In this document: piece by piece, positions 21,379 to 48,442 of the stretch
How the letters are laid out: every line of letters begins with the position of its first letter
Position numbering within the stretch: position 1 is the first letter of the stretch
Assembly (NCBI GenBank): GCA_035913415.1
Contig: JAMIIV010000199.1
Coordinates: 6,229-70,228, forward strand
DNA: 64,000 bases
Origin: Fibrobacteria bacterium
GTDB lineage: Bacteria > Fibrobacterota > Fibrobacteria > UBA5070
Direction: 5' to 3'
Notes under the pieces: generated by a model
Told to the model about the DNA's origin: nothing
Seen by the model: only the letters and a program-made list of their open reading frames with translations
Database searches by the model: none
Position numbers and translations under genes: made by a program

Positions 21379-22854
21379 CTAGCCGCGTGAATCCCGGGCA
21401 TTCGGCAGCGGGCATGCTGCGGAGAGGATGCCGCGGAGCATGCCCTCGAACACGAAATGGTGGAACGGAAGCACGGCGAACCAGTAGGCGCGCCCCAGCA
21501 GCCCCTTGGGGCGGAACGTGGCCTTCTGCTCGAGGCGCGCGCCGCCGGGACCTTGGGTTACGCGGAATTCCAGCCAGGCCTCGCCGGGGAGTTTCATTTC
21601 GGCGTACAACAAGAGCCTGCGGTTGGGGCGGTCGGCCGCCAGCACGCGCCAGAAATCCAGGGTGTCCCCGGTGCGCAGTCGGTGCGGATCGGTGCGACCA
21701 CGGCGCAGACCGACACCGCCGACGAACTTGTCCAGGATGCCGCGCAGGCGCCACAGCCAGTCGCCGTAGTACCATCCGGTCGCGCCGCCGATGCTCCATA
21801 CGGCCTCCACGACGGGCCCGGGATCGCCTGCGATGGGCTTCGAGCGGTGGTCGAAGTAGCAGCCGTTGGTGGGGACGTTCACGTGCTCGAGCAGGGAGTC
21901 GTGGAAGCCGCTGGAAACCAGCGAATCCTTCCAACTGGAAATCACGTTGTTCTGCTCGATCTTCTCGAAGGCCAGTTCCACGGCGCGACGATACGGCGTG
22001 GGGGTGATCCCCAGCATCGCCGCGAGGTCGTTGGGTCTGGCCACCACTTCGACCTTCATGCTGTTCACGAGATGCACGGCCAGCGTGTACGAGGTGGATG
22101 TCACGAAGTAGAGCCAGTACGACGAGAGTCGCGGCGTCATGACAGGAATCGTCCAGATTCGGCGCTTCAGGCCCCGCGCCTCGGCGAACTGCAGAAGCAT
22201 TCCCTTGTAGGTGAGCACGTCGGGGCCGGCGATGTCGTACGAGCCGTCGAAGGTGCGCGCATCGCCCAGGCAGCGCACCAGGAATTCCAGGACGTCGCGG
22301 ATGGCGATGGGCTGGATGCGCGTGTTGAGCCATTTCGGCGTGACCATCACGGGGAGCTTTTCCACCAGGTCGCGGATGATCTCGAAGGATGAACTCCCCG
22401 AGCCCACGACGATCCCGGCTTTGAGCGTGGTGACCGGGATGTCTCCCGAGCGGAGGATGGCATCGACGTTGCGCCGCGATTCGAGATGGCGCGACAACTC
22501 CGCCTCGTTGACGATCCCTCCCAGGTAGAGGATCTGACGTGCCTGGTATCGCTTGGCGACTTGGAGGAAGTTCAAGGCCGAGGCCGCTTCCAGCGCTCCG
22601 AAGTCCTGGGAGGCGTCGCTCATCGAATGGATGAGGTAGTAGGCTGCGTCCACAGGAGGCGTGTCTTCGGGGAGCGAAGGGGGTTTGAGGAAATCGATTT
22701 CCAGGACGCTGACCCGGGGGTGGCCGTAGATCCCTTCCGTGGGGAATCGTCGCCGGTCGCGCACGCAGCAGATCACCTCGTGGCCCGCCGCGATCAGCAG
22801 AGGGAGCAATCGCTTGCCGATGTACCCGTTCGCGCCCGTCAGCAGCACCCGCAT
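21379..22854 (-). CDS. NAD(P)-binding SDR/NmrA-like domain fused to DUF2867.
   Basis: MRVLLTGANGYIGKRLLPLLIAAGHEV (Rossmann GxxGxxG), then a C-terminal domain roughly 170 aa long (...DFWRVLAADRPNRRLLLYAEMKLPGEAWLEFRV...). Confidence 0.6.
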   Translation of the reverse strand: MRVLLTGANGYIGKRLLPLLIAAGHEVICCVRDRRRFPTEGIYGHPRVSVLEIDFLKPPSLPEDTPPVDAAYYLIHSMSDASQDFGALEAASALNFLQVAKRYQARQILYLGGIVNEAELSRHLESRRNVDAILRSGDIPVTTLKAGIVVGSGSSSFEIIRDLVEKLPVMVTPKWLNTRIQPIAIRDVLEFLVRCLGDARTFDGSYDIAGPDVLTYKGMLLQFAEARGLKRRIWTIPVMTPRLSSYWLYFVTSTSYTLAVHLVNSMKVEVVARPNDLAAMLGITPTPYRRAVELAFEKIEQNNVISSWKDSLVSSGFHDSLLEHVNVPTNGCYFDHRSKPIAGDPGPVVEAVWSIGGATGWYYGDWLWRLRGILDKFVGGVGLRRGRTDPHRLRTGDTLDFWRVLAADRPNRRLLLYAEMKLPGEAWLEFRVTQGPGGARLEQKATFRPKGLLGRAYWFAVLPFHHFVFEGMLRGILSAACPLPNARDSRG

Positions 22855-23009
22855 GATTCGCCTTCCCGTGCGCCCGCCACGTCCGGCCAGTCGCCCTCTC
22901 CAGGCTAAATAGGATTCCGGCAAGCTGGACGGTGCTGGTCGACACCAGAAAGGCTACGATTCAAGCCGTTCACCCGTCGTGTTCATCCGCCTGCAGGAGA
23001 GTCCGATCC

Positions 23010-23408
23010 ATGTCCGACAAGATCCAGAAACCGTCATCGGCCTTCGTCGCCGCCTCGTGGGTGTCCCTCGCGCTGGGCATGGGAAGTTATTGCCTGGGGC
23101 TGTGGAATGCCCAGATGATGCTCAACGAGAAGGGGTATTACTTCGTGTTGCTGCTGTACGGACTTTTCGCCGCGGTGTCGCTGCAGAAGTCGGTGCGCGA
23201 CCAGATCGACGGCATTCCTGTGACGGGCATCTACATGGGTCTGGCCTGGGTGTCCACGGGCGCCGCATTGTTGCTGCTGGCGGTGGGACTGTGGAACGCG
23301 ACGTTGACGTTCAGCGAGAAGGGGTTCTACGGGATGGCCTACATCCTGTGCCTGTTTTCGTCGGTGGCCATCCAGAAGAACATCCGGGATTCCGCCAACG
23401 CGGGTTGA
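23010..23408 (+). CDS. YiaA/YiaB-family inner-membrane protein (duplicated 2-TM unit).
   Basis: Two repeats of W..LGLWNA.M.L.EKG(Y/F)Y..L....F...S.QK.(V/I)RD. Confidence 0.6.
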   Translation: MSDKIQKPSSAFVAASWVSLALGMGSYCLGLWNAQMMLNEKGYYFVLLLYGLFAAVSLQKSVRDQIDGIPVTGIYMGLAWVSTGAALLLLAVGLWNATLTFSEKGFYGMAYILCLFSSVAIQKNIRDSANAG

Positions 23409-23562
23409 TTCGCCTTCCAAGATCGAGTTCTGCGAGGCGCTTCCAACCGGGAGCGCCTTTTTTCTGGACGACGGTCATTGCCCATCGACGGGGGGAGGGC
23501 ACAAAAAACGGGACCGGCCGAGTGGCCGATCCCGTCGAACGTCGATCCGCCGCAGCGGTCGA

Positions 23563-24351
23563 TCAGCCCTGGATAACGTTGCCCGAGTTGTCGTAGGCGG
23601 TGGCCTGGCCGTTGGCGTCGATCACCATCGTCCCGACCTTCGCGCCATCCTTCAGGAGATCCACGGTCTGGGGCGGGACGCCCGATTCGGTGAACTTGAG
23701 GTTCGAGATGGTGATGCCGTTGACCGACATGCTCAGCGATCCGACCAGGGTCGGTTCGGCGTCCTTCGATGCAGCCGACACCGTGGCGGTCATCGGAGAG
23801 ATCGACATGGAAATGCTCTGGCCCTGGCCGACCATCGTCATGCTCATGTCCATGCGCATCGAGATGGTGTAGCCTCCGGACGAGGTCACGGGCTTGAAGA
23901 CCAGCGCGTAGTTCATCTTCATGTTCATGGCCATGCCGTCTTCGTTGGACGTCATGGTCATGGTGATCTTCATCCCCAGACCGGTCGTGGCATAGGAGTT
24001 TCCGGCATCGGCGCACGACGCGAAGGGCGATCCATCGGCCTTGGTGACCTTGATCGAGTAGGACATTTCTCCTTGGGTGATGGACGTGTCGAAGGAGGGG
24101 CAGGTGGTCGCCTGCATGCGGCCCGGGAGGGGCGCGAAGGACGAGGCCAAGCCGGTCGCGATTCCCGTGATGCTCTCCGTCACGCCGTCGATCATGCCGT
24201 CTTCGCCGATGAACATGCCCATCATGCCAGTCGACTGGGCGATGGACTGCTTGTCCTGCGCGGACAGGGTCGGGGCTTCGGCCTCGTCGTCGCCACAGGC
24301 GGTGAAGAGGGGGAGAGTCAGGGCTGCCAGAAGGGCCAGACTGGATTTGCG
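23563..24351 (-). CDS. Met-rich lipoprotein (candidate periplasmic Cu(I)/metal-binding protein).
   Basis: Signal MRKSSLALLAALTLPLFTAC. The central region is MxM/MxxM dense: KITMTMTSNEDGMAMNMKMNYALVF...ISMRMDMSMTMVGQGQSISMSISPM. Confidence 0.55.
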   Translation of the reverse strand, partial: RKSSLALLAALTLPLFTACGDDEAEAPTLSAQDKQSIAQSTGMMGMFIGEDGMIDGVTESITGIATGLASSFAPLPGRMQATTCPSFDTSITQGEMSYSIKVTKADGSPFASCADAGNSYATTGLGMKITMTMTSNEDGMAMNMKMNYALVFKPVTSSGGYTISMRMDMSMTMVGQGQSISMSISPMTATVSAASKDAEPTLVGSLSMSVNGITISNLKFTESGVPPQTVDLLKDGAKVGTMVIDANGQATAYDNSGNVIQG

Positions 24352-24558
24352 CATGGATGGATCTCCAGGGAGATGGCGGAGGATTCGGTTGGGACCCCAA
24401 TGAGGGTTAGGCTTCATGCTAGCACAATTGCGGAATGAATTCCATGCCTGGGTACACAGGAATCCGCGCAAGTGGATTCTCGAGTCAATTACCGATTTGT
24501 TGATCCTGTTTTCTCATGAATTGATTCGGTGGCCAAAGGCTCCTGTACGATCGTCGAT

Positions 24559-25356
24559 TCAGACCTCGCGACCGGTATCCCGGGGGGCGGGAAGACGCCG
24601 GAGCAGTTCGTCCATGTCTCTGCGCAGGGCCTTGATTTCCGCTTCCATTCCGGTCTCGGCCTTGGTGGGTTCGGCGACCTCCTGGATGGCCGAGACGATC
24701 ACGCCGATGAACAGGTTCAGCACGGCGAAACTGGTGATCACGATGAACGGGACGAAGAACAGCCAAGCCCAGGGGTGGACGGCCATGATGGGACGGACCA
24801 GTCCATCCGACCAGCCTTCGAGGGTCATGATCTGGAAAAGGGTGAAGAACGAACGGGGAAGCGATCCGAACCATGCGTCGAAATCGGCGCCGAACAATTT
24901 GGTGGACAGCACCGCCGAGACGTAGAACAGGACCAGGAGCACCACGGCGATGGAGGCCATGCCGGGGATGGCCGCGGTCAGCGCGTTCACGACGCGTTTG
25001 AGCGAAGGGACGGTGGAGAACAGGCGCAACGCACGAAGGATGCGCAAGGCACGGAGGACCGATAGACCGCCGGAGTGGGGCAAAAGGGAGATGCCGACGA
25101 TGACGAAGTCGAAGAGGTTCCACCCCGAGCGGAAGAAACGGAAGCGGTAGGCGATCATCCGCAACGCGACTTCGATGGTGAAGTAGCCGAGAGCGAGTTT
25201 GTCGAGGAGGTGGAGCAGCGTCCCTGCGACGGACATCACGGCAGGGGAGGTCTCGAGGCCCAGGGTCAACGCATTGATCAGGATGACGATGGTCGTCGTG
25301 GTCTGGAAGCGAGGATGGTGGACGAATTTCTGCAGGGCTGAGAATTGCTGTTCCAT
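24559..25356 (-). CDS. Single-domain voltage-gated cation channel (BacNav/NaChBac family) with a CavMr-like selectivity filter.
   Basis: S4 segment RALRILRALRLFSTVPSLKR; pore FQIMTLEGWSDGLVRP; 6-TM layout; C-terminal coiled coil EAEIKALRRDMDELLRRL. Confidence 0.8.
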   Translation of the reverse strand: MEQQFSALQKFVHHPRFQTTTTIVILINALTLGLETSPAVMSVAGTLLHLLDKLALGYFTIEVALRMIAYRFRFFRSGWNLFDFVIVGISLLPHSGGLSVLRALRILRALRLFSTVPSLKRVVNALTAAIPGMASIAVVLLVLFYVSAVLSTKLFGADFDAWFGSLPRSFFTLFQIMTLEGWSDGLVRPIMAVHPWAWLFFVPFIVITSFAVLNLFIGVIVSAIQEVAEPTKAETGMEAEIKALRRDMDELLRRLPAPRDTGREV

Positions 25357-25534
25357 GGGCAGGCAAGGTACCCGCTAGGCGGTCGATGTCGCAAGGGTCG
25401 CTCCCGGACGGAAATCATTCCGGTTGGCGTGTGTCGTGTCTTCCGAGGTCGGAATCACGCAAGGCGACGGCGCCAACCGCCGGGTGCAAGTCGTTGCCTG
25501 GCGGCCGAAGAAGCCAGACCGATCGTGAACAGGA

Positions 25535-26296
25535 TCAGGTGCGAGGCGTGGAGTCCGCGATCGGACGTGGACGTGTCTCCCACAGAAACACCAGGAGGCA
25601 GGCGATCGCGGTGGCGCCGAGCACGGGCATGGTCAGAGGCGAAGTGCTACGCACGAACAAAATGACATCCTGTTCGATGGGAACGCCGTCCACGGCACGA
25701 AGACGAAACAACAGGGCCAGAGGGGTGACGACGACCAGGGCCATTCGGATCCAGGGGCCGGTGAGGAGGGCGCGCCATCCTTGGGCCGATCGCGCCATCA
25801 TTCGCGCGAACGCCCAGGCAAGGAGCAGGCATCCGAGGATCGAATGGAAAAGCCAAGCCATGTGGCGCAGGTGGATCGGGCCGGCTTTCGAATCCATCAG
25901 TTTGGTGTCCAGGAAGGACCAGTGGAGGATGGTGGGGCCGTCGTGGGTGAAAAGATCCCAGATCAGGTGGGTTCCCCCGCCGATGAGGGCTCCCAGAATC
26001 GTGAGGAGCCAGGGAAACGATGATGGCGCGGTGCGCGCAAGGGATTCGCATCCGGGAAGTCGAGCGAACCGAGGTACCAGCCAGCGGGAGACAATCGGGG
26101 TGAGAAGCATGGCGAAGGGGGCCGCCAGAAGGACGACGCCGGGGATGGAATGGCTGAACTGGCGGCCCACGCCGGGAAACGCGCGGATCAGGTCGGGGGT
26201 CAGCGCGCCCAGTACCAGAGCGGTCCTCCAGCCACGTGATCGACTGAAGGGGAAGAATGGCAGGGTCGCGGCGGGATGGATGGCAGTGAACGGCAT
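25535..26296 (-). CDS. Polytopic membrane protein, DUF4184/YdjM-like putative metal-dependent hydrolase.
   Basis: Hydrophobic helices with HxxxD-type motif (GGGTHLIWDLFTHDG). The overlapping + ORF 25386..26336 is Arg-rich antisense nonsense. Confidence 0.4.
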   Translation of the reverse strand: MPFTAIHPAATLPFFPFSRSRGWRTALVLGALTPDLIRAFPGVGRQFSHSIPGVVLLAAPFAMLLTPIVSRWLVPRFARLPGCESLARTAPSSFPWLLTILGALIGGGTHLIWDLFTHDGPTILHWSFLDTKLMDSKAGPIHLRHMAWLFHSILGCLLLAWAFARMMARSAQGWRALLTGPWIRMALVVVTPLALLFRLRAVDGVPIEQDVILFVRSTSPLTMPVLGATAIACLLVFLWETRPRPIADSTPRT

Positions 26297-26520
26297 GAGT
26301 GAAGACCAATCTACGGATTTCAGGAGGGACGGGTAGGGCGGAGGGGACGTCCAGATCGCCCGTCCGGGTGCTTCCCACGCATCGAGTGGTCGAGCCGATA
26401 TTCGGTGGTCGAGTCTGTCGAGACCCACCGCTCCGGTCTCGGCAGGCTAGACCACCGAGTGCCCCGCCTCCGGAAGCATCGACTCCGTGACGAATTCCGG
26501 CCGAGTGGACGGCACCGGGG

Positions 26521-28302
26521 CTATCGCCCGCAGGCCGCCCGCCACCCGCCGCACGAGGTGATGTCTTCCATGTCCTGCACGCCGTGTGGCTCGGCGAGAA
26601 AGCCCATGCACGTCGAGCCATCTTCCAGTTCCAGCGTTCCCAGGCACAGGGGCGGGCGAACGCAGGTGGCCAGGAAGGAACCGGCCCCTTGTGGGGGAAG
26701 ACTCCAGAGCTCGACCTCGAACGGGGAGCCCTCGGGGGAGCGTACAAGTCCCGGGAAGCGGCGTTCGCCGCGCACGATCCGGAATGCCCGGTACACCGAT
26801 GATGTGCGTGTGGTTCGCTCCAGTCGCCCACCTCGCTCGCGCAGTTCGTGGTTCAGCGGGAGCCCGTCCATGTGCAGTCCGGCCACGGCGATCACGACCC
26901 GGGGTGCCTCGGGCGCACCGGCCAGCGGCTCGCGCGGGGGCATGGGACCATCCACTCCGGATGCCAGATTCTGGTGGGCCTGGAAACGTGATCCCAGGGT
27001 CAGCAACGCATGGTCGTGGAAGGCCGGGGCGAAGAGGGTGATGCCGAAAGGCAGGCCCGACGGGTCGAAGCCGGCTGGAAGCGCCAGGGCGGAAAGGTCG
27101 AGAAGGTTGCAGAAGTTCGTGCCACGCCCCAGATGCGCATTGGGGCCGAACGGATCGGCCGCGACCTCGGCCAAGGTGGGGTGTGATCCCGCCGTGGGGA
27201 GGATCACGACATCGATCCCGCGCATCTGGCGGTCGACAGCGGCTCGCAAGGCCTCCAGACGGTCCTGGGCTCGGAACAATTCGGAGGCCAGGCGTTCGCG
27301 CCCCCCTTGGAGGATGCGCAACGTGGTAGGATGCACGGATGCGGGAAAGGCATCGGCGAAGGCACCCACGGCGGCCCAGCGCTCGGCGACCCAGGGGCCT
27401 TCGTAGAGCAGGGCGGCCGTCTCGGCCCAGAGGGTGAAGTCGAGGGGGACGCGGCGTCCGCCGAGCTCTTCGAGACGACGTATGGCGTGTTCCCAAAGAG
27501 GGTGCCAGGCGGCATGGGTGAGGTAGGGAACGTTGTAGGGGACGGCAAACACGAATCCCGCGGAGAGCCCCGCCGGCGGGAGCGAGGGCCACGAGCGACT
27601 GCGCGGATCGCGCGGATCGGGGCCGCGTGCGATGTCCCAGACCGCGTAGGCATCGTGGCAGGAATGGGCGAACACGCTCAGGCAATCCAGGCTCGCGCAG
27701 GCGGGAACCACCCCGGAAGCGGGCAGGACCCCGCGCGTGGGTTTAAGGCCCACGAGGTTCCCGAAGGCAGCCGGAATCCGTCCGGATCCGGCGGTGTCGG
27801 TGCCCAGGGCGAACGCGACCTGGTCGAGGGCCAGCGCCACCGCCGAGCCCGAAGAGCTGCCCCCGGAGATGCGATCGGGATCGAAGACGCTGCGGCACGC
27901 CCCGTAGGGGGTGCGTGTGCCCACTAGGCCCGTGGCAAACTGGTCGAGATTGGTCTTGCCGATCGGTACGGCCCCGGCCTCGCGCAGGCGGGCCACGACC
28001 ACGGCATCGGCCACCGGCGTGTGCGCGAAGTCCGGACAGGCCGCGGTGGTGGGCCAGCCCGCGACGTCGATGTTGTCCTTGACCGCGAAGGGGAGCCCGA
28101 AGAGCGGCAGGTGGTGTCCCGCCGACCGGGCCGCTTCGATACGGTCGGCTTCCGAGGCGATCTCGGCTTCGGTGGCCAGATGGATCCAGACAGCAGGGTC
28201 GCCCGACGCGCGGGCACGGCGCAGGCTCTCCAGCAGCAGGGAGCGGGTGTCGATGGCGCCGGATTCGAGCTGGTGGCGGATGCTGGTCGGATCGAGTCTC
28301 AT
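26521..28302 (-). CDS. atzF: Allophanate hydrolase (amidase-signature domain + AtzF C-terminal domain).
   Basis: C-terminal roughly 593 aa of ORF 26521..30936, starting MRLDPTSIRHQLESGAID. Amidase signature GGSSSGSAVALA...GTDTAGS; AtzF_C region after about residue 450. Confidence 0.85.
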   Translation of the reverse strand: MRLDPTSIRHQLESGAIDTRSLLLESLRRARASGDPAVWIHLATEAEIASEADRIEAARSAGHHLPLFGLPFAVKDNIDVAGWPTTAACPDFAHTPVADAVVVARLREAGAVPIGKTNLDQFATGLVGTRTPYGACRSVFDPDRISGGSSSGSAVALALDQVAFALGTDTAGSGRIPAAFGNLVGLKPTRGVLPASGVVPACASLDCLSVFAHSCHDAYAVWDIARGPDPRDPRSRSWPSLPPAGLSAGFVFAVPYNVPYLTHAAWHPLWEHAIRRLEELGGRRVPLDFTLWAETAALLYEGPWVAERWAAVGAFADAFPASVHPTTLRILQGGRERLASELFRAQDRLEALRAAVDRQMRGIDVVILPTAGSHPTLAEVAADPFGPNAHLGRGTNFCNLLDLSALALPAGFDPSGLPFGITLFAPAFHDHALLTLGSRFQAHQNLASGVDGPMPPREPLAGAPEAPRVVIAVAGLHMDGLPLNHELRERGGRLERTTRTSSVYRAFRIVRGERRFPGLVRSPEGSPFEVELWSLPPQGAGSFLATCVRPPLCLGTLELEDGSTCMGFLAEPHGVQDMEDITSCGGWRAACGR

Positions 28303-31300
28303 GGGGCCTCCAGCACGATCAGGACTTGGCCAGGGGCGGCGGCCGATCCCGCGGATGCCCGCACGTCGAGGACGGTGCCGGAACGCGGAGAACACACGGG
28401 AGCTTCCATCTTCATGCTTTCCAGCACCACGAGGGTTTCTCCTTCCAGGACCTGCTGGCCGGGCTCGACCAGCACCTTCCAGACGCTGCCCGGGAGGTCG
28501 GCGCACACCGCCTCCGCTCCTTCGGGAATGTCGGATTCCGTCTGCGCCGGGCCGGCATCCTGGGAGCCCACCACCGAGACGCCTTGGTCCTCCCAGCGCC
28601 GGCGCTCGGCGGCGAAGGCCTCGCGTTGCACGGTCTGGAACGCGTCGATGGAAGACGACTCGGCGGCGAGGAACCTCTTGTGGTCCTTCCAGCGGAAGGT
28701 CCCGGGTTCGATCTTCAGGTGCAGCCGCCCGCGGGGGAAGTCTTCGCGCAGACGCAGCAGTTCGTCGGCCGGGACTTCGTAGAACCGGATCCGGTCGAAG
28801 AATCGCAACAGCCACGGGCGGGCAAATTCCGTCGTGGTCAGCCACCGGTTCCACATCTGCACGGTGCGTCCGACGAACTGGTAGCCGCCCGGACCCTCCA
28901 TGCCGTACACGCACAGGTAGGCGCCGCCGATGCCCACGGCGTTCTCGGGAGTCCAGGTGCGGGCGGGGTTGTACTTGGTGGTCACGAGCCGGTGGCGCGG
29001 GTCCAGCGGCGTGGCCACCGGCGCCCCCAGGTACACGTCGCCCAGGCCCATCACCAGGTATTGCGCCTGGAACACGATGCGCTTGACGTCGTCGATGGAA
29101 TCCAGGCCGTTGACGCGACGGATGAACTCGATGTTGGAGGGGCACCATGGGGCGTCGGGGCGCACGGTGCTGGTGTACTTCCCGATGGCCACGCGGGTGG
29201 CGGGGTCGTCCCACGACAGGGGCAGCCACACGGTCCGGCTTTCGAATTCGATGTCCTCGGCGTCGGGCAGGGCGTTTTCCAGGTCGAGCAGCCGGGAAAG
29301 CAGGCGCGAACGCGACAGGATGCGTGGATCGAACCGCACCTGCAAACTGCGGATGCCGGGGGTCAGGTCGGTCACGCCTTCCAGCGATTCCGCCTGCAGC
29401 GCCTGGAGAAGCGCCTGGGCGCGCAGCCGCAGGGCGATGTCCAGGACCATCGGTCCGAATTCGACGAGGATGGCGTCGTCGCCGTCCTGACGCACGCACA
29501 GTTCGGGCAAAAGCTCGCGGCTTCCGGAGCGGTGGAGGACGATCTCGGTGGCCGCCTCGGCCCAGGGAACGGGAGCCGTCTTGACAATTTCCGCCAAGGC
29601 GCGTTCGGAGCCGCGGGCGTGGGCGTGCAGCACGGGCACGAACCGGATCGTGTCTCCGGCGCGCAATTGCCCGACCTTCCACAGTTCGGCCAGGGCGATG
29701 GTGACGGGGCAGGCGAATCCGCCCAGGGAAGGGCCGTCGGGGCCGAGGATCACGGGCATGTCGCCGGTGAAGTCGACGGTTCCCGGCACGTAGGCGTTGT
29801 CGTGCAGGTTGGAGGGATGCAGTCCAGCTTCGCCGCCATCGGCGCGCGCCCATCGGGGCGTCGGGCCGACCAGTCGCACGCCGGTGCGGTCGGAGTTGTA
29901 GTGGACGCTCCAGTCGGCGGCGAAGAAGTCGTCCATGTCTTCGGGCAGGAAATACTCGGGGGCCGCGTGGGGCCCCATCAGGACGCCGATCCGCCAGGCG
30001 CTCGACAGTTCGGGCCGGCTCTCGGACGGCACGGACTCGGCACGGGGACTGGAAGTCGCGATTCCCAACGGGATCTGGTCGCCGACCCGCAGGGCGCGTC
30101 CACCATGGCCGCCGAAGCCGCCCAGCGTGAACGTCGATCGCGACCCGAGATGCTCCGGCACGTCCAGGCCGCCGGCCACCAGCAGATAGCCGCGTGCACC
30201 GGGGCCGACCACCCGAGGGCACGACAGGATCTGACCCGCATGCCAGGGGAAAGGATCCCAGGTCGGAACCGGGGCGCCATCGAGAGTGGCCCCGAAATCG
30301 GCACCCGCGAGCACCGCCCAGGTGTCGGTGTGGGCCTTGAGGGTGGGCCCCTTGAGGACGAATTCGAGACCTGCCATGCCTTCGGGATTTCCCAGGGCGA
30401 GATTGCCCAGACGGAACGATCGGTCGTCCATCGGTCCGGACGGAGGGATGCCCACGTCCCACAGGCCCTGTCGACCGGGCCAGTCCTGCACCGTGGTCTG
30501 GGCACCCGCCGACAGCACTTCGAGGCTGCGGGGGGTGTCGGCGATGGTGCCCACCAGGCCGGTGTGCATGCGCGCTGCCGTGAAGTCGGGGTGCGCGAGG
30601 ATGCGGCGCACATGGCCGATGTTCGTGGCGATCCCGCCCAGGCGCGTGCTTGCCAGAGCGGTGTCCAGCAGGGCCAGCGCGTCTTCCCGCGTGGCGGCGT
30701 GCGCGATGATCTTGGCGACCATGGGGTCGTACCAGGGCGGGATCTCGGTGCCGGCCCGGACCCAGGTTTCGACGCGCACATCGGTGGGGAACACCGCCTC
30801 CGTGAGCAGTCCGCACGAGGGTGCGTGACCGCGCGCAGGATCTTCCGCGTACACGCGGGCCTGCACCGAATGGCCCGAGGGCGCAGGGATGGCATCCAGG
30901 AAGGATGTGTCGCCGGCACCGCAGCGGATCATCCATTCTACCAGGTCGATGCCGAAGATCTCCTCGGTGACGCCGTGCTCCACCTGCAGGCGGGTGTTCA
31001 CCTCCAGGAAGGCCGCATCACCGGTGTCGGCATCCAGCACGAACTCGACGGTGCCAGCCGAGCGGTACGAGACCGACCGTCCCAAGGCCGCGGCCGTGTG
31101 TTCCAGGCGTGCGCGCAAGTCGTCGGTGAGTCCTGGCGCGGGGGCTTCCTCGATCACCTTCTGGTTGCGCCGCTGCGCCGAGCAGTCGCGCGTGCCCAGG
31201 GCCTCCACGCGCCCCTTGCCATCGCCGAAGATCTGCACCTCCACGTGGCGAGCCCGCACCACCAGGCGCTCCAGGTAGAGTCCCGCATCCTTGAAGTTGG

Positions 31301-31865
31301 CGCGGGCCAGATCGGCCACGGCGTCCCAGGCGACGTCCAGTTCGGCTTCGGATGCCACGCGGCGCATGCCGATGCCCCCGCCGCCGGCGGTGCTCTTGAG
31401 CATCACGGGGTACCCGATGCGGGATGCCTCCATGCGGGCCTGGTCCAGGGAGTCCAGCAGGCCCGTGCCCGGAAGCAGGGGCACGCCGCTCTCGATGGCC
31501 TTGGCGCGCGCGCTGTGTTTGAGTCCGAACACGCGCATCTGCTCCGGGCTGGGTCCCAGGAAAACGATGCCGGCCGCCTCGCAGGCCTCGGCGAAGGCCG
31601 CGTTCTCCGAGAGGAACCCGTACCCGGGGTGGATGGCCTGGGCGCCGGTGCGGCGCGCGGCCTCCAGGATGGCTTCGGCGTTCAGGTAGCTGGCGGAGGC
31701 CTGCGCGGGGCCGATGCACACGGCCTCGTCGGCCATGTCGATGTGGAGGCTGTCGCGGTCGGCTTCGGAGTGCACGGCCACCGATGCCAGGCCCATGCGT
31801 CGCAACGTGCGGAGGATGCGGCAGGCGATGGCGCCGCGGTTGGCCACGAGAACTTTGTCGAACAT
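28299..31865 (-). CDS. uca: Urea carboxylase (biotin carboxylase + carboxyltransferase KipI/KipA-like domains + biotinyl carrier).
   Basis: 1188 aa: MFDKVLVANRGAIACRILRTL (BC domain), cyclophilin-like KipI/KipA domains, C-terminal EAPVCSP...LESMKMEAP biotinylation motif (AMKM variant). Confidence 0.9.
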   Translation of the reverse strand: MFDKVLVANRGAIACRILRTLRRMGLASVAVHSEADRDSLHIDMADEAVCIGPAQASASYLNAEAILEAARRTGAQAIHPGYGFLSENAAFAEACEAAGIVFLGPSPEQMRVFGLKHSARAKAIESGVPLLPGTGLLDSLDQARMEASRIGYPVMLKSTAGGGGIGMRRVASEAELDVAWDAVADLARANFKDAGLYLERLVVRARHVEVQIFGDGKGRVEALGTRDCSAQRRNQKVIEEAPAPGLTDDLRARLEHTAAALGRSVSYRSAGTVEFVLDADTGDAAFLEVNTRLQVEHGVTEEIFGIDLVEWMIRCGAGDTSFLDAIPAPSGHSVQARVYAEDPARGHAPSCGLLTEAVFPTDVRVETWVRAGTEIPPWYDPMVAKIIAHAATREDALALLDTALASTRLGGIATNIGHVRRILAHPDFTAARMHTGLVGTIADTPRSLEVLSAGAQTTVQDWPGRQGLWDVGIPPSGPMDDRSFRLGNLALGNPEGMAGLEFVLKGPTLKAHTDTWAVLAGADFGATLDGAPVPTWDPFPWHAGQILSCPRVVGPGARGYLLVAGGLDVPEHLGSRSTFTLGGFGGHGGRALRVGDQIPLGIATSSPRAESVPSESRPELSSAWRIGVLMGPHAAPEYFLPEDMDDFFAADWSVHYNSDRTGVRLVGPTPRWARADGGEAGLHPSNLHDNAYVPGTVDFTGDMPVILGPDGPSLGGFACPVTIALAELWKVGQLRAGDTIRFVPVLHAHARGSERALAEIVKTAPVPWAEAATEIVLHRSGSRELLPELCVRQDGDDAILVEFGPMVLDIALRLRAQALLQALQAESLEGVTDLTPGIRSLQVRFDPRILSRSRLLSRLLDLENALPDAEDIEFESRTVWLPLSWDDPATRVAIGKYTSTVRPDAPWCPSNIEFIRRVNGLDSIDDVKRIVFQAQYLVMGLGDVYLGAPVATPLDPRHRLVTTKYNPARTWTPENAVGIGGAYLCVYGMEGPGGYQFVGRTVQMWNRWLTTTEFARPWLLRFFDRIRFYEVPADELLRLREDFPRGRLHLKIEPGTFRWKDHKRFLAAESSSIDAFQTVQREAFAAERRRWEDQGVSVVGSQDAGPAQTESDIPEGAEAVCADLPGSVWKVLVEPGQQVLEGETLVVLESMKMEAPVCSPRSGTVLDVRASAGSAAAPGQVLIVLEAP

Positions 31866-32129
31866 GACGGAATCCGTCTTCAGCGGGCCGTCCCGCCTGT
31901 GTGGTGGTGCCGCGTGGGTCGTCCCGCGCGGCGGAAGGTGTGTCGGATCAGACCGAGGTTGCGGCGTTGCTGGTCGGGCCGGAGGTGCTGTGGTCGGGTG
32001 ATCCTCCGGTGGTCGAGTCTGTCGAGACCGGCGCGGTGGGTCTCGACAAGCTCGACCACCGAATCGCTGGACCCCGAACCGAGGAACGCTCGGCCACCGG
32101 ATGCTCGACCACCGAACCTCCGACCATCG

Positions 32130-32780
32130 TCATGGGTTCCACACGAGCATGCGCACCGGGGTGGGATTCCAGCCGTTGCACGGATTGTTGAGCTGCGGGC
32201 AGTTGGAGACCAGCACCAGGATGTCGGACAGGGCTTCCAGCTCCACGTATTTGCCCGCGTCGCTGATGCCGTCGGCGAAGCGCAGGCCCCCTTCGGCGGT
32301 GACCGGCACGTTCATGAAGAAGTTCACGTTGGCGCCGATGTCGCGTTTGTCCAGGGCGCGTCCCGAGCGCGCCATGGCCAGCAGGAAACTGTCGCGGCAG
32401 TTGTGCATGGGGCGTTTGTCGAGGGCGTAGCGCACCTGGTTCGATTCGGCGGCGCAGGCCCCGCCGACGGTGTCGTGGCGACCACAGGTGTCGGCGACGA
32501 TGCGCGCCATGGAACGGCCGCGGGTGGAGCGAAGCACCGAACCCGTGGTCAGGAACAGGTTGCCCTGCTCGCGGATGGTGTTTTCCGCGCTGTAGCGCTC
32601 GGAGGGGTCGCGCGCGTCCAGGAAGAACGTGTCGACGGCCTGGTTGCCTTCCAGGTCCACGATGCGCAGGATCTGTCCGGCGCGCAGTTCGTGCAGCCAG
32701 TGGTCGCCGGATTCGACGACATGGTCGACCGTGGCGCGGGCGGGATCGAGCCGGCTCTCGACGAGGTTGGAGGCGCTCAC
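32130..32780 (-). CDS. Urea carboxylase-associated protein 2 (DUF1989).
   Basis: GTG start VSASNLVESRLDPARATVDHVVESGDHWLHELRAGQILRIVDLEGNQAVD; typical TIGR03425-like sequence. Confidence 0.8.
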   Translation of the reverse strand: MSASNLVESRLDPARATVDHVVESGDHWLHELRAGQILRIVDLEGNQAVDTFFLDARDPSERYSAENTIREQGNLFLTTGSVLRSTRGRSMARIVADTCGRHDTVGGACAAESNQVRYALDKRPMHNCRDSFLLAMARSGRALDKRDIGANVNFFMNVPVTAEGGLRFADGISDAGKYVELEALSDILVLVSNCPQLNNPCNGWNPTPVRMLVWNP

Positions 32781-33493
32781 GGGAAGATCCTTTCGGTGAG
32801 GAGGAATCCGCGCCCGTTCTGTTCGCAACTGGTGCGCACGGGGTCGTCGACTCCGGGTGCCGGGCATCGCAGCACCTCGAGCTCCACGCCCGCGGGCGAC
32901 CAGGTCGGGGTGGGGTCCAGGGGGTGCGGGGTGGCCGACAGGGCCACCAGGACGTCCATCTCGAAGCGCAGCGCGACGTACCTGCCCGGGCCTCCGCGCG
33001 GAGCCCATTCCAGGGCACCGTCTTCGCCCACGGCGATGGAGGTGAACAGGTTCACGCACGAAGGGACGTCGCGTTCGCCCAGGCCGTATTTCCCCAGCTC
33101 TACCAGGAAATGGTCGCGGGCGTTGGTGAAGCGTTCGTTGCGCAGGCGCTGGTAGGTGCCCGCTCCGAAGCGTGCGGCGACCGACGCCGAATTGGAACAT
33201 CCCGTCACGGTGTCGTGCCACCCGGTGGAATCCTCGACCATCGAGGCCAGGACGTGTCCCATGTCGGAGTAGAGGGCGCAGGGCGCGGCAAGGCGGGCGA
33301 TGTGCTGGGCCTTGAGGGTGTCGGGCATGTTGTAGCGCTCGGTGGGGTCGTCGGAACGCAGCAGGATCATCGAGGCGTTGGCCCGTCCCGAGACGTCGCG
33401 CAGGCGCAGCCCCTGGCCGCGGCGCAGGCGGGCCGACCAGGAAGCACCGGCAGGGACGGACTCGGAATAGGAGACGGAATATGTCATGGTCAT
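32777..33493 (-). CDS. Urea carboxylase-associated protein 1 (DUF1989).
   Basis: MTMTYSVSYSESVPAGASWSARLRRGQGLRLRDVSGRANASMILL...; TIGR03424-like. Confidence 0.8.
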   Translation of the reverse strand: MTMTYSVSYSESVPAGASWSARLRRGQGLRLRDVSGRANASMILLRSDDPTERYNMPDTLKAQHIARLAAPCALYSDMGHVLASMVEDSTGWHDTVTGCSNSASVAARFGAGTYQRLRNERFTNARDHFLVELGKYGLGERDVPSCVNLFTSIAVGEDGALEWAPRGGPGRYVALRFEMDVLVALSATPHPLDPTPTWSPAGVELEVLRCPAPGVDDPVRTSCEQNGRGFLLTERIFP

Positions 33494-34389
33494 TCGACCT
33501 CGTCGCCCACCAGAGTGAAGCGCACCATGGGGATGCGTTCGACGACGGGGGCCGGCTGGGGTGGATGGATGAGATGGTCCAGGTGGGCGCGCGTGGCCTG
33601 GAATTCGGGCGAGGGCAACTGGTGGAAGTGGCGCGGACGCGGCACCGGCACCTCCAGGTGCTCGCGCACGCGGCCCGGGCGCGGATCGAGCACCAGGATG
33701 CGGTCGGCCAGGTACACGGCTTCGTCCAGGTCGTGGGTGATGAAGACGATGGTGATGTCGACGTTCTTCCAGATCTGCAGCAGATGCGCCTGCATCTGCG
33801 AGCGCGTTTGGGCATCCAGGGCCCCGAAGGGCTCGTCCATGAGAAGCACCCTGGGGCGGGCCGCCAGGCTGCGCGCGATGGCCACCCGCTGCTTCATCCC
33901 TCCGGACAACTGGTGCGGGTACTTGTCCTCGAAGCCCGAAAGCCCCACGAGTTCGATCCATTCCCGCGCTTCGGCGTCGGCGGTGGTGCGTCCGCTGCCG
34001 GTCATCTCCAGTCCGAATGCGACGTTGCGCGCCACGGTCAGCCACGGGAACAGGGTGTATCCCTGGAACACCATCCCGCGGTCGGGGCCTGGTCCGTCCA
34101 CCGGAGAGCCGTCGACCAGGATCTGTCCGGAGGTGGCGTCTTCCAGCCCGGCCAACAGGCGGACAAGGGTGGACTTGCCGCAACCAGAGGCGCCCACGAT
34201 GCACAGGAATTCGCGCCGATGGACGGAAAAGGACACGCCGCGCAAGGCCTCGACGGGCCCCTGGGCGCTGGGGTAGATCTTGCCGAGGTCCAGCACTTGC
34301 AGGACGGATTCCCGCCCCAGCATGCGGTCCAGTCGTGAACGCGAGGCCGGGTCCGGGGCGGGCAGGCGCGGGGCTTCGGAGGCGTTCAT
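33490..34389 (-). CDS. ABC transporter ATP-binding protein (NitT/TauT family).
   Basis: GASGCGKST, LSGGMKQRVAIARSL, LLMDEPFGALD; start MNASEAP at 34389. Confidence 0.85.
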   Translation of the reverse strand: MNASEAPRLPAPDPASRSRLDRMLGRESVLQVLDLGKIYPSAQGPVEALRGVSFSVHRREFLCIVGASGCGKSTLVRLLAGLEDATSGQILVDGSPVDGPGPDRGMVFQGYTLFPWLTVARNVAFGLEMTGSGRTTADAEAREWIELVGLSGFEDKYPHQLSGGMKQRVAIARSLAARPRVLLMDEPFGALDAQTRSQMQAHLLQIWKNVDITIVFITHDLDEAVYLADRILVLDPRPGRVREHLEVPVPRPRHFHQLPSPEFQATRAHLDHLIHPPQPAPVVERIPMVRFTLVGDEVE

Positions 34390-35423
34390 GGCGCGACCTC
34401 GGCGACGACGGGGGCGGGGCGACGGCGCAGCATGGCGCGCAGACCGGGTCTGGCGTCCTTGCGCCAGGGGAACAACCTGCGGCCGATCCATCCCAGAACC
34501 ATGTCGGTGCCCAGCCCCACCACGCCGATCAGCAGGATGGCGGCCATCACGTTGTCGTAGGCGCGGTACTTGGCCTGCAGGTTGATGAAATAGGTGATGC
34601 CGGAACTGGTGCCGATGAGCTCGGCCACGATCAGGTACGTCCAGGCCCAGCCCAGGAGCACGCGCTGGTCGGTGTAGAGGTCGGCGATGGAGGCGGAGAG
34701 GATCACGCGCAGCAGCAGTTGGCGGGGCTTGGCCCCCAAGGTTTGGGCCGCCTCGAGAAGGGATGGGTCCACGCGCCGCACCGTGTTGGAGACCACCAGG
34801 ACCTGCTGGAAGAACGTGCCGATGACGATGATGGCGATCTTGGGGGCGTCGTGGATGCCCAGGATGGCCACGCACAACGCGCCGAACGCCGGTGCGGGAA
34901 GATACCGGAAAAATTCCAGGAACGGTTCGGACAATCGCGCCATGGCGGGAATGGCCCCGCAGGCGATCCCCAGGGGGATTCCGACGAGTGAACTGAGGAA
35001 AAAACCCCAGACGATGATGCGGATGGAATGCAGCAGGTTCTGGTGCAGCCACTTCTCTTCCGACAGGCGCGGGGCGGCGCGGAAGGACGTGACCATCGCA
35101 CGCGCCACTTCGTGGGGCGCGGGCAGGAAGACCGGGTTGGCGGGACTGCCCGTGGCGACCTCGCCGCCGCGGGCGGCGACCACCGCGTTGGCCTTCTCGA
35201 AGCCGGCGCGTTCGACGCGCATGCCGGGTGTGAACCACGCCACGTCGCCGGTCGACTCGACTTCGATCTGCGGGTGCCAGATCCACGGCACGTAGCTGAC
35301 CGCGCTCCAGACCAGGAGAGGGGCCAGAAAGGAGATGAACCACATCAGAGTGCGCGCACGGCCGGAGAGTTCCCCATGGATGCGAAACAGGCTCCGACGG
35401 CGTTTGCTGGAGGCGATGGGCAT
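34386..35423 (-). CDS. ABC transporter permease (NitT/TauT family).
   Basis: EAAQTLGAKPRQLLLRVILSASIADLYTDQRVLLGWAWTYLIVAEL (EAA loop region) and 6 TM helices. Confidence 0.85.
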   Translation of the reverse strand: MPIASSKRRRSLFRIHGELSGRARTLMWFISFLAPLLVWSAVSYVPWIWHPQIEVESTGDVAWFTPGMRVERAGFEKANAVVAARGGEVATGSPANPVFLPAPHEVARAMVTSFRAAPRLSEEKWLHQNLLHSIRIIVWGFFLSSLVGIPLGIACGAIPAMARLSEPFLEFFRYLPAPAFGALCVAILGIHDAPKIAIIVIGTFFQQVLVVSNTVRRVDPSLLEAAQTLGAKPRQLLLRVILSASIADLYTDQRVLLGWAWTYLIVAELIGTSSGITYFINLQAKYRAYDNVMAAILLIGVVGLGTDMVLGWIGRRLFPWRKDARPGLRAMLRRRPAPVVAEVAP

Positions 35424-35524
35424 GGGCCGGGCTCCCGGACAGGGAGGTGGCGGGCCGTCCCGCCGTGGTTCGATGTCCCCCCGAGCCGTCCCGGGAGGAG
35501 GTGTGGACGTTGGGGCCGAATGAC

Positions 35525-43864: not shown

Positions 43865-45381
43865 GTCGTTTCAATCTCATCGACGAACCTTGGATCCCGG
43901 TTCGGCGCAAGGATGGCTCCTTTGCGGAACTGGGCATCAAGGACGTTCTGCTCGCCGCCAAGGAGCTTTCCGGCATCGAAGATCCGTCGCCGCTTGTGGT
44001 GGCCTCGCTGTACCGTTTCCTGCTGGCGGTCCTGTATCGCGCCCTGGAGGGGCCGACGGACATCGATCAGGCCAAGGTTCTGTTCCGGGATGGATTGCCC
44101 ACGGACAAGATCGACGCCTACCTGGAAAAATGGCGAGACAGATTCTGGCTGTTCGATGCGAAGTATCCGTTCGGGCAGCATCCAAATGTCAAGGCTGACG
44201 AGATCGAGCCTTGGACCAAGTTGACTCCAGAGTATAACGCCAGATCAAACAAGGTTCTGTTTGATCACACGGACACGAGAAGTCCGGGAGTAATCTCACC
44301 GAGCAATGCTGCGCGCTGGCTTTTGACGACATCTCACTTCTCCATCTCCGGTGGCCGTGGCTATTATCCATCGCCATCACCGAATGCGATGATATGCATC
44401 CCGCTTGGACAAAAACTGTCAGAGACCTTTCTATTCAATTTGGTTCCATATGCAAATCGGGAGGTACAAAAGGTCGATCAAGCGCAATGGGAGCGGGAGC
44501 CACCAATTCTGCCGTTGGCGATAGCGAAGAGAGTTGCGCGAGGATATGCCGACCTTTTCACATGGCAATCCCGCTTCGTTCAGCTTGAAGCTGATGCGGA
44601 TGGGAATGTCTGTCGGCTTCGGTTCATTGCTGGGGAAGGCTTTGAAAATCCTACGCGTGATCCTGATCCCATGCAGCCCTCCAAACCTGACAAGGAGCAC
44701 GGATGGTTACCGGTTCAATTCCGGGGAGATAAAGCTACCTGGCGGGACTTTGATGCTCTCCTTCCTGGTCCTGAAGGACTTGAGCCAAAGACGATCCAGC
44801 ATAGCATGGCTTTGGTAGGTAGGAAGGGCGTTGCTCCGAAATCATTGCTGGTCCTTGGGCTCCGATACGAGCCGCCCAATGCCAATCTCGATTTCTGGCG
44901 GCAGGACCAGTTTGTCATGCCAGCGGCAATTGCAGGTGACCAGGCGGTGCGTAGCGATATCAAACGCTTGCTCAAAACCGCAGAGGAAACGCAGACAGCG
45001 CTTTGGAGCGCTTCAAGGAGCTTTGCACGGGATGTTGTAGGGCACGGGGACAGGGCTCCGGACAAAAAAGATCTCGCAGCTTTCGTGTCCCAACTGCCTG
45101 GGACGCCAGCCTATTGGTCGATTCTGGAAGCGCGATTTCAGGAAATTCTGAACGCCTACACCTTGGATGCCAATCCAGATGCCATTGAACACCAGTGGCT
45201 GCTGTGCGTTCGCAGTGCCCTGAAGGATGCTTGGCAACTGCAGAAGAACAGCGTGTCTGGTGGTGATGCATGGACTCTGCGCGCCTTGGTCAAGGCGGAA
45301 GCTCCGATCCTGCGGAAATTGGCCGAACTGAATTCGACGCTCAAGGAATACCAAACCCAGCAACCTGAGGAGAACGGATGA
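43861..45381 (+). CDS. cas8e: Cse1/CasA (Cas8e), Cascade large subunit.
   Basis: GTG start overlapping cas3 stop; NLIDEPWIPVRRKDGS... N-terminus typical of Cse1. Confidence 0.85.
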   Translation: MSRFNLIDEPWIPVRRKDGSFAELGIKDVLLAAKELSGIEDPSPLVVASLYRFLLAVLYRALEGPTDIDQAKVLFRDGLPTDKIDAYLEKWRDRFWLFDAKYPFGQHPNVKADEIEPWTKLTPEYNARSNKVLFDHTDTRSPGVISPSNAARWLLTTSHFSISGGRGYYPSPSPNAMICIPLGQKLSETFLFNLVPYANREVQKVDQAQWEREPPILPLAIAKRVARGYADLFTWQSRFVQLEADADGNVCRLRFIAGEGFENPTRDPDPMQPSKPDKEHGWLPVQFRGDKATWRDFDALLPGPEGLEPKTIQHSMALVGRKGVAPKSLLVLGLRYEPPNANLDFWRQDQFVMPAAIAGDQAVRSDIKRLLKTAEETQTALWSASRSFARDVVGHGDRAPDKKDLAAFVSQLPGTPAYWSILEARFQEILNAYTLDANPDAIEHQWLLCVRSALKDAWQLQKNSVSGGDAWTLRALVKAEAPILRKLAELNSTLKEYQTQQPEENG

Positions 45382-45911
45382 GCGGATTTGTCGCATGGCT
45401 GGAAAGCCTCAATCAGCGAGACACCAAGGTTCGCGCCGTTTTGCGGCGAAGCCTTGCCTTTGATCCGGGAACGCAACCAGCTGCTTACCCGTATGTCGAG
45501 CCGTTCCTTGCCGCAGAGGATAATTCATGGCGGCGTACAGTGCACTATCTGGTGGCTGGGCTGTGGGCGCAACACTGGCGTGAAGGGCGCACGGGTGTGG
45601 CATTGCCAATTGGTAAAGCCTTTGGTGAGTACGAATCCGAAAAACGCTCGAAACTGAAGGGTGAGGAGCGGAATAAGGTGACGAGTACTGAACAGCGCTT
45701 CGTCGCCTTGCTCGATTCCGACGAGGATCAACTTCCGTACCGGATGCGCCAGATGATCGCGCTGCTCAAGGATCAGAGCATCGACTTTGAGAGTGTCCTC
45801 AAGGGTCTGGTGTTCTGGAACAGCGAAACCAAACGGACTCAGACGGATTGGGCCAAAGACTTCTACCGCACTTTGAATCACGACAATTCCACCAACGAGG
45901 AGATTCCCTGA
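45378..45911 (+). CDS. cse2: Cse2/CasB (Cas11), Cascade small subunit.
   Basis: 177-aa helical protein in the canonical position; ATGA overlap with cse1. Confidence 0.8.
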
Positions 45912-47071: not shown

Positions 47072-47778
47072 GCATGCCCACCCTTCTTCTGAGGCTGGTG
47101 GGGCCGATGCAATCGTGGGGAACCATCAGCCGCTTTGATCAACGTGATACCGGCAAGGAGCCCAGCAAGTCCGGAGTGATCGGCTTGCTTGCCGCCGCCA
47201 TGGGCATCGATCGCGAAAACTGGGAGGACCTGGAGCCGTTGACGCACTTGCGCATGGGCGTGAGGCATGATCGGCCAGGAATACCGAAACGTGAATATCA
47301 GACGGCAGGATGCGCCAAAGGCGACAAGATCATGACGGCCGATGGGAAAGCAACAAAGGAAAATGATCCTGGTATTGTCTCGCATCGCGACTACCTCGCC
47401 GACGCGGCATTTCTTGTGGGTCTGGAAGGCGATGATCTCGCATTGCTGGAAAAGGCCGATGCCGCCTTGCGTGACCCCGTTTGGCCGCTGGCATTGGGGC
47501 GGAAGTCCTATGTGGCCACGGAGCCGATCTGGTGCGATGGTGGCATCCGTGGCATGGGACTCGTGGACGCTCTGAAGAATCATCCGTGGATCGGTTTTTT
47601 GCGGCGCTACGAGGATGTTCCTGCTTCCTTGAGACTTTCCCTTGAGTCGGAAGACGGGACGGGTTCCATGCGTATTGACCAGATTCTGTCATCTTTCGCG
47701 GAGCGCCGTTTCGGTTCCCGTTTCGTGCGAACCGAGATGATCCCCTTCCCGCAGGAGGTCGCCGATGCTGTTGCATAG
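47068..47778 (+). CDS. cas5e: Cas5e/CasD.
   Basis: [43 protein letters not shown], canonical Cas5e N-terminus. Confidence 0.9.

Positions 47779-48438: not shown

Positions 48439-48442
<4 letters not shown>
47765..48442 (+). CDS. cas6e: Cas6e/CasE crRNA endoribonuclease.
   Basis: [29 protein letters not shown]...; C-terminal GGIGHGKAMGLGLLSV glycine-rich loop. Confidence 0.9.

Follow-up and report, generated by a model that had tools for sequence, protein, structure and literature searches.

Two pore-loop alleles, Na+-type and Cav-like, at one bacterial sodium channel locus in Fibrobacteria

The channel gene and its protein

We analysed a stretch of 64,000 nucleotides from a Fibrobacteria bacterium (GenBank assembly GCA_035913415.1, contig JAMIIV010000199.1, positions 6,229 to 70,228; hereafter the window), which carries on its minus strand a gene for a channel of the bacterial voltage-gated sodium channel (BacNav) family. 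The main interest of the locus is a near-isogenic pair of alleles with Ser (S-type) or Gly (G-type) at position 4 of the selectivity filter. This pair arose by short-tract recombination across the pore loop and, by comparison with published channels, the selectivity of the G-type channel is probably shifted towards Ca2+. The features of the gene are as follows.

24559..25356, minus strand: BacNav-family channel gene with the G-type pore allele; complete open reading frame with ATG start, 265 aa, 798 nt including the stop codon
25012..25314, minus strand: voltage-sensor domain S1-S4 (aa 15-115), from the sequence, a 64-sequence alignment and AlphaFold2 (AF2) helices
24784..24885, minus strand: pore-loop cassette and recombination tract (codons 158-191), from the mismatch map; end of the S5-P1 turret, P1, filter and most of P2
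24805..24825, minus strand: selectivity filter T178-L-E-G-W-S-D184, with Gly (G181) at position 4, Ser (S183) at position 6 and Asp at position 7
24673..24774, minus strand: pore-lining helix S6 (aa 195-228), from AF2; short P2-S6 linker without a CavMr-type insertion
24595..24663, minus strand: C-terminal cytoplasmic helix (aa 232-254), from AF2

The open reading frame is intact and contains FQIMTLEGWSDG. Pfam Ion_trans (PF00520) matched residues 15-229 (E = 2.4e-48, 164.9 bits against a cut-off of 25), and a PDB sequence search returned NavMs (3e-74) and NavAb (about 1e-63). The AF2 model (mean predicted local distance difference test score, pLDDT, 90.3) had NavMs, NavAb and CavAb as its best Foldseek matches and superposed on NavAb residues 1-226 with a root-mean-square deviation of 2.2-2.8 A. 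These results bear out a sequence-only reading of this DNA, which had assigned the gene at 24559-25356 to the BacNav family with the filter TLEGWSD; the filter codons lie at 24825-24805. In the model, S5 (130-155) is followed by P1 (166-177), a non-helical filter (178-181), P2 (182-193), S6 (195-228) and the C-terminal helix (232-254), which places TLEGW (residues 178-182) in a re-entrant pore loop with P1 and P2 helices between S5 and S6. From the known architecture of NavMs and NavAe, helix 232-254 is likely the neck and coiled-coil tetramerisation region typical of BacNavs.

In the 64-sequence alignment, the S4 arginines R102, R105, R108 and R111, spaced at every third position, are invariant, as are the countercharge and gating-pore residues N28, E35, F59, E62 and D83. 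Through a +3 numbering offset, we take these voltage-sensor residues to correspond to N25/E32/F56/E59/D80/R99-R108 of NavAb. The gene appears to encode an intact voltage-gated cation channel, with a predicted homotetrameric assembly and predicted gating. The same 798-nt allele was present base for base in three other independent assemblies (L004, L005 and L006), so the channel gene is not an assembly artefact.

The pore loop differs between alleles as a single cassette

The closest database protein (P0001) is 96% identical to the channel and carries the filter TLESWSM; all 11 differences lie within residues 158-191. At the nucleotide level, contig L001 (7669 bp) aligned without gaps to window positions 31008-23340 at 99.23% identity. 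Nearly half of the mismatches (29/59) were packed into 99 bp (24786-24884; binomial tail 7e-39), and the remaining 30 were spread across 7570 bp (0.4%). The parts of the gene flanking this tract showed 0/471 and 1/225 mismatches. Between S-type and G-type, 10 tract codons changed synonymously and 11 nonsynonymously, and the Nei-Gojobori proportion of synonymous differences (pS) was 0.535 in the tract compared with 0.006 in the rest of the gene. The clustering of mismatches together with the high pS therefore points to imported DNA, that is, a recombination tract, rather than to locally accelerated point mutation. Judged against the AF2 limits, the tract starts shortly behind S5 and stops close to the end of P2, so that it takes in the complete re-entrant pore loop and no other element.

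The S-type allele was found with an identical tract in three assemblies (L001, L002 and L172), which align gaplessly to the window at 98.6-99.2% identity. The G-type allele was found in four datasets in all, namely the window and L004, L005 and L006. Outside the tract, divergence among all these sequences was 0.04-0.7%. Every copy has the same gene order (allophanate hydrolase, DUF4184, channel, 263-aa lipoprotein-like, YiaAB, epimerase/DUF2867), and S-type and G-type are thus alleles of one locus. As read from these alignments, the pore loop is one of two discrete cassettes at this locus, moved by homologous recombination over about 100-155 bp.

We looked for the source of the exchanged DNA. 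Neither tract has a further copy in the 64-kb window, where the channel gene is the only Ion_trans gene. The lack of another Ion_trans gene led us to reject gene conversion from a paralog inside the window and leaves one elsewhere in the genome as a possible source. Among the roughly 160 homologs in hand, no tract identical to either allele occurred outside the species cluster, and a 43-aa S-type tract query against a set of 5.8 billion proteins returned only six short fragments.

The channel belongs to the canonical NavAb-like clade

To our knowledge, CavMr of Meiothermus ruber is the only characterised native prokaryotic voltage-gated Ca2+ channel (Cav). The sequence-only reading had likened the window channel to it and proposed a second such Cav. 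The filters it gave are correct: CavMr has 183-TLEGWVD-189 (PMC7041947), and the reference sequences give TLESWAS for NaChBac and TLESWSM for NavAb. The resemblance to CavMr holds within the filter, which is identical at six of seven positions including 4 and 7, but does not extend to position 6, to loop spacing or to clade.

In BLASTP comparisons with the reference channels of the 2020 CavMr paper, the channel was closest to NavSp (51% identity, 263 bits), NavMs (50%, 244 bits) and NavAe (50%, 218 bits), followed by NavAb (43%, 220 bits) and NaChBac (44%, 201 bits), with CavMr (37%, 125 bits) and NavPp (36%, 119 bits) last. The channel has Gly4 and Asp7 (G4/D7) in common with CavMr without being its relative. 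A neighbour-joining tree placed the channel inside the NavAb-like clade (NavAb, NavMs, NavSp and NavAe; separating bipartition with 87% bootstrap), outside the AnclNav branch and apart from the Bacillus group.

The loop between filter and S6 gave the same placement. From the filter Trp to the N-L-F motif of S6 there are 31 residues in the channel, as in every canonical BacNav reference, compared with 48 in CavMr and 48-52 across CavMr, NavPp and close relatives, which have a Cys-containing insertion. The P2-S6 linker of the channel is short and without cysteines, and its GxVRPxxxxxPxAW motif is present as GLVRPIMAVHPWAW. An extended L6 loop with a Cys pair has been described for CavMr, NavPp, Moorea and Leptospira channels (PMC10120453); it marks the CavMr subgroup only and is lacking in short-loop AnclNavs.

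With NavMs of Magnetococcus marinus and NavAb of Arcobacter butzleri the channel shares family, clade, six transmembrane segments, four S4 arginines, the short linker and the C-terminal helix. The canonical filter of this clade, TLESWSM, is exactly that of the same-species S-type allele; the window allele differs by Gly4/Asp7 in place of Ser4/Met7 and by the extra turret acids D158 and D160. With CavMr it shares G4 and D7 and a single-domain voltage-gated build, but CavMr belongs to another clade, has a P2-S6 loop 17 residues longer with a Cys pair, and carries Val at filter position 6 where the channel has S183. On these sequence features, we place the channel as a canonical-clade BacNav with a non-canonical filter and not as a member of CavMr's AnclNav group. 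Its nearest named proteins come from Fibrobacterota and Fibrobacteria metagenome-assembled genomes (MAGs). The species itself is missing from the GTDB representatives, among which the nearest genome, at 78% protein identity, is a Fibrobacterota MAG from river water that likewise has TLEGWSD. A scan of JGI metagenomes for further strains returned nothing closer than 61% identity.

Similar switches occur in related lineages

Both filters also occur in a sister lineage, represented by the P0002 cluster at 90% identity: TLESWSM in P0002/L007 and TLEGWSD in P0124 and P0125 (L168-L171). Within this sister species, L007 (S) and L170/L171 (G) form a second mosaic pair. Between L007 and L170, 17/1398 bp differ upstream of the gene and 18 positions differ in its first 470 bp; 26/155 bp then differ at gene nt 473-627, with only four differences beyond. 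The left tract border at codon 158 is common to this pair and the window species. A third switch was seen among P0009 (TLEGWSD), P0013 (TLEGWSE) and P0014 (TLESWSM), which are 86-89% identical; in the pore region, residues 192 and 195 and filter positions 4 and 7 are all that distinguishes P0009 from P0014.

Divergence of the tract and of the remaining backbone was compared within allele classes:

Window and L003 (G and G): tract 7.8%, backbone 10.6%
Window and L170 (G and G): tract 15.7%, backbone 15.1%
L001 and L007 (S and S): tract 14.7%, backbone 14.9%

Within a class, tract divergence follows backbone divergence, whereas between classes it is 15-30% regardless of backbone. Two histories are compatible with this pattern: an old polymorphism of two alleles that related species have in common, or cassette transfer that took place repeatedly. 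As for the direction of exchange, L003 (G) suggests that G is the resident allele of the window species, but L007 (S) is equally congruent with L001, at about 23 synonymous sites. Within-class ratios of nonsynonymous to synonymous change (dN/dS) in the tract were 0.03-0.07 for G-type pairs and 0.16 for the S-type pair. The filter is invariant within each class, and TLEGWSD occurs in four G-type lineages with tracts that differ by up to 20% of nucleotides. The low dN/dS together with the invariant filter therefore indicates that both cassettes are functional and under purifying selection.

Filter positions 4 and 7 are coupled

We surveyed homologs for the G4/D7 filter, as the sequence-only reading had recommended. 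Among 318 close homologs, a redundant set whose members are not independent, Ser4 with Met7 accounted for 265, Gly4 with Asp7 for 29 and Gly4 with Glu7 for eight. Gly7 followed by Glu8 (TLEGWSG-E) accompanied Gly4 in 11/318 and Gln7 followed by Glu8 (TLEGWSQ-E) in 1/318; four sequences had Asn4, Asp4 or Ala4 with various residues. Neither Ser4 with an acidic position 7 nor Gly4 with Met7 occurred (0/318 each). In single-domain representatives of 50%-identity clusters, Gly4 was present in 15/56, none of which had Met7. TLEGWSGE, in which the acidic residue is moved one position along P2, is a third filter style common among alphaproteobacterial-type homologs (P0029, P0036, P0041, P0042 and others).

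The strict pairing of Gly4 with an acidic residue and of Ser4 with Met7 suggests two functional states and not fine tuning. Two discrete states without intermediates fit the mutagenesis literature, because Gly4 alone is Li+-preferring and Asp7 alone is Ca2+-blocked. Recombination would offer an easy route between them, since the change from Met (ATG) to Asp (GAY) needs three nucleotide changes.

The idea that the window channel is only the second sequence of its kind did not survive the survey: about one in four single-domain homologs of the NavAb-like type has a G4 filter, and several G4 sequences are already present in the sequence file of the 2020 paper. These include Tabrizicola TLEGWAD and Desulfonatronospira TLEGWSE, both within the NavAb-like clade in our tree. 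According to a published statement, canonical BacNavs do not combine Gly4 with an acidic position 7. Our data correct this: the combination is common in the NavAb-like clade and occurs in about a quarter of the NavAb-like homologs that we sampled.

Predicted selectivity of the G-type filter

How four-fold symmetric channels discriminate between Ca2+ and Na+ is still debated: CavAb relies on many aspartates, and CavMr on glycine, without need of aspartate. In CavMr, the Ca2+ to Na+ permeability ratio (PCa/PNa) of 218 falls to 11.9 with G4S, to 40 with V6T and to 144 with D7M. In the CavMr scaffold, Gly4 and Val6 therefore matter and Asp7 is dispensable. CavMr carries no Na+ current when Ca2+ is absent from the solution. 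The Gly4 effect could be transferred from CavMr to NavPp, and a 'beacon' rule holds that Gly at the position after the high-field-strength site (HFS+1) accompanies Ca2+ selectivity in one-domain channels (PMC10120453).

Canonical scaffolds behave differently. NaChBac S192G (LEGWAS) is like wild type, with PCa/PNa of 0.15, while S195D, which introduces Asp7 alone (LESWAD), raises the ratio from 0.15 to 17 by reversal potential (PMC2229573). NavAb S178G (TLEGWSM) keeps PCa/PNa below 0.05 and prefers Li+ (PLi/PNa 2.18); M181A reaches 0.36 and S178G/M181A 0.47, compared with < 0.05 (PMC12919392). In the conclusion of the NavAb work, it is Met181 that separates monovalent from divalent cations, and Gly178 makes the vestibule wider and leaves Glu177 exposed (PMC12919392). 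Among the single mutants tested in canonical scaffolds, Gly4 alone thus brings no gain in Ca2+ permeability and position 7 changes raise it, the reverse of CavMr, where G4 is essential and D7 dispensable. By analogy with these published single mutants, the D7 change suggests a lowered Na+ selectivity, and a shift of the window channel towards Ca2+ is plausible, but by a logic that differs in part from that of CavMr.

Engineered channels offer a further comparison. NaChBac LESWAD, LEDWAD and LDDWAD (CaChBac) and NavAb TLDDWSD (CavAb) all have a canonical scaffold with an acidic position 7 and are Ca2+-permeable. They have Asp at position 4 where the natural cassette has Gly, and the natural cassette alters nine further pore-loop residues. 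NavAb S178G ('LivAb') and S178G/M181A (J Gen Physiol 2026) share the TLEGW core in a canonical scaffold but have Met or Ala at position 7, not Asp, and both prefer Na+/Li+. NsvBa of Bacillus alkalophilus (TLDSWGS), a natural non-selective BacNav, likewise shows natural, species-specific retuning of selectivity by filter substitutions. It differs in its Bacillus clade, in the positions changed and in being a single-species substitution, with no within-species cassette exchange described.

From these comparisons we predict that the G-type filter lifts Ca2+ permeability to at least the level of Na+. Loss of Met7 would remove the element that excludes divalent cations in canonical BacNavs, the four added Asp7 carboxylates and the turret acids D158 and D160 would attract Ca2+, and Gly4 would widen the vestibule and expose the Glu3 ring. 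In such a channel Ca2+ would permeate no less readily than Na+ (PCa/PNa > 1), and cells in fresh water poor in Na+ could admit Ca2+ under voltage control. The S-type allele, with its classical Na+ filter TLESWSM, would stay Na+-selective. Ca2+ permeability, as the sequence-only reading had proposed, is thus a reasonable prediction by analogy, while the status of a second native Cav is unproven.

Alternative explanations

We favour, with somewhat better than even confidence, a canonical BacNav with S/G pore cassettes exchanged by recombination, in which the G-type is predicted to be Ca2+-permeable and the S-type Na+-selective. Several points weigh against this reading. TLEGWSD and close variants were not found in the literature searched, with no electrophysiology in any scaffold. 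NavAb TLEGWSA, the nearest canonical mutant with a measured selectivity, still favours Na+ (0.47), and few cells showed current (PMC12919392). No current was obtained when NavAb was given the complete CavMr filter (TLEGWVD). External Ca2+ blocks NaChBac LESWAD rather than being conducted well (PMC2229573), so the G-type phenotype could be that of a Ca2+-blocked Na+ channel. No donor of the cassette was found, and the 102 nt of the tract, with about 23 synonymous sites, are too few to separate a shared polymorphism from repeated transfer. That one population contains both alleles is suggested only by run accession numbers that lie next to each other, and the freshwater link comes from one MAG title; with G4 in only 2/80 genome loci, there were too few for a comparison of fresh water (G) with marine (S) sites.

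A native, highly Ca2+-selective Cav that works by CavMr's own Gly4-based mechanism, with PCa/PNa of the order of 100, seems to us unlikely. The shared filter with its G4 and D7, the transfer of the key G4 effect to NavPp and the Ca2+ selectivity predicted by the beacon rule (PMC10120453) all speak for it. The channel, however, belongs to another clade with another pore backbone (37% identity, without L6 extension or Cys pair), and its position 6 is Ser, where V6T lowers the selectivity of CavMr fivefold. G4 alone is also without effect on Ca2+ permeability in NaChBac and NavAb, and the authors of the NavAb-Mr swap, which gave no current, concluded that backbone and mechanism differ between the two groups. 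Slightly less probable still is a G-type channel that mainly carries monovalent ions (Na+/Li+), with the cassette adjusting its gating, its conductance or its block by Ca2+, along the lines of NavPp or NaChBac LESWAD. The Na+ and Li+ preference of NavAb S178G and S178G/M181A fits this, as does NavPp, which is Na+-permeable and Ca2+-blocked despite three acidic filter residues. LESWAD is not only Ca2+-blocked but activates at potentials shifted by +19 mV (PMC2229573). The PCa/PNa of 17 measured for LESWAD by reversal potential argues the other way, and the strict G4-acidic/S4-M7 pairing suggests two discrete functional states.

We regard as very improbable that the G-type allele is non-conducting or decaying and the polymorphism neutral or deleterious. 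No current could be detected when NavAb-Mr, CavMr-Ab and several AnclNav homologs were expressed in heterologous cells, but here the reading frame is intact, four G-type lineages share an unchanged filter with a tract dN/dS of 0.03-0.07, and G4 filters are common across the family. Least probable of all is that the mosaic reflects chimeric metagenome assembly or the output of a diversity-generating retroelement. Although all sequences come from metagenome assemblies and their differences are tightly clustered, the G allele recurs in four datasets and the S allele in three, with identical tracts and no hypervariation. Reads are also typically longer than the tract, and one read should therefore be enough to span it. 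A retroelement was rejected on the identity of the alleles across three to four assemblies, the ten synonymous codons and the lack of a second tract copy, or of another Ion_trans gene, in the window; the substitution spectrum of the tract is not A-biased, which alone is a weak argument.

Extending the preferred reading of recombination-exchanged cassettes, we tentatively propose an exchangeable 'selectivity cassette', an idea in which we have rather less than even confidence. Co-adapted S4/M7 (Na+) and G4/D7 (Ca2+-permeable) haplotypes would persist in several related freshwater Fibrobacterota-like species, short-tract recombination would switch the ion carried, and intermediates would be selected against. 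Selection against S4/D7 and G4/M7 would account for why the coupling is perfect and why the switch depends on recombination.

The two alleles provide a near-isogenic natural channel pair, 11 pore-loop residues apart, on a scaffold close to the crystallisable NavMs and NavAb. As one allele has a classical Na+ filter and the other a Cav-like G4/D7 filter, the selectivity question becomes directly testable. In the literature searched we came across no description of a BacNav selectivity filter exchanged by recombination, which does not prove that none exists. As far as that literature shows, this is the first indication of bacteria exchanging ion-selectivity modules by short-tract recombination.

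Genomic neighbourhood

The channel gene is flanked by two genes on the same strand, and the 263-aa gene is followed by a terminator-like hairpin:

25535..26296, minus strand: upstream neighbour, DUF4184 membrane protein, 253 aa as called (Pfam DUF4184, 4.2e-27)
23563..24354, minus strand: downstream neighbour, 263-aa protein with a lipoprotein-like signal and no Pfam family (open reading frame, Pfam scan)
23536-23507, minus strand: terminator-like hairpin after the 263-aa gene (terminator scan)

The DUF4184 neighbour shows weak similarity to YdjM and Zn-dependent phospholipase C. Synteny of the DUF4184, channel and 263-aa genes was kept in L001-L007 and L168-L172, including lineages with 10-15% diverged channel genes, and the terminator scan gave no terminator-like site between the channel gene and the lipoprotein-like gene. 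A functional link of the channel with these flanking genes is possible on the basis of this arrangement. Comparing L003, L007 and L168-L171 with window positions 21400-29400, we noticed that the channel gene keeps 85-90% nucleotide identity between related species, compared with 73-80% for its neighbours; the highest of these was allophanate hydrolase, at up to 83.5% in L168/L169. The higher conservation of the channel gene could reflect very strong constraint or exchange of the whole gene between species.

Further upstream, a Guanidine-II (mini-ykkC) riboswitch (35450-35497, 39.8 bits) precedes a gene set on the same minus strand (26521-35497), which contains ABC-transporter genes, two DUF1989 genes (carboxyguanidine-deiminase type) and the following:

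28299-31865, minus strand: urea/guanidine carboxylase, 1188 aa
26521-28302, minus strand: allophanate hydrolase

From its gene content, the set at 26521-35497 looks like a guanidine-degradation operon under a guanidine-II aptamer instead of the usual guanidine-I. The channel gene lies two genes downstream of this set on the same strand. We considered an operon link between the channel and the guanidine-degradation genes and rejected it, as they share the strand but show no evidence of co-regulation. ARAGORN called a tRNA-Arg(gcg) at 35131-35230 (plus strand) that is unusually long (100 nt) and overlaps an ABC-permease reading frame on the other strand. The call is probably false, or else the gene is an oddity that contains an intron. 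Finally, GC content is 0.55-0.58 at window positions 42000-50000, compared with 0.62-0.70 elsewhere in the window, and this low-GC segment may be a horizontally acquired island.

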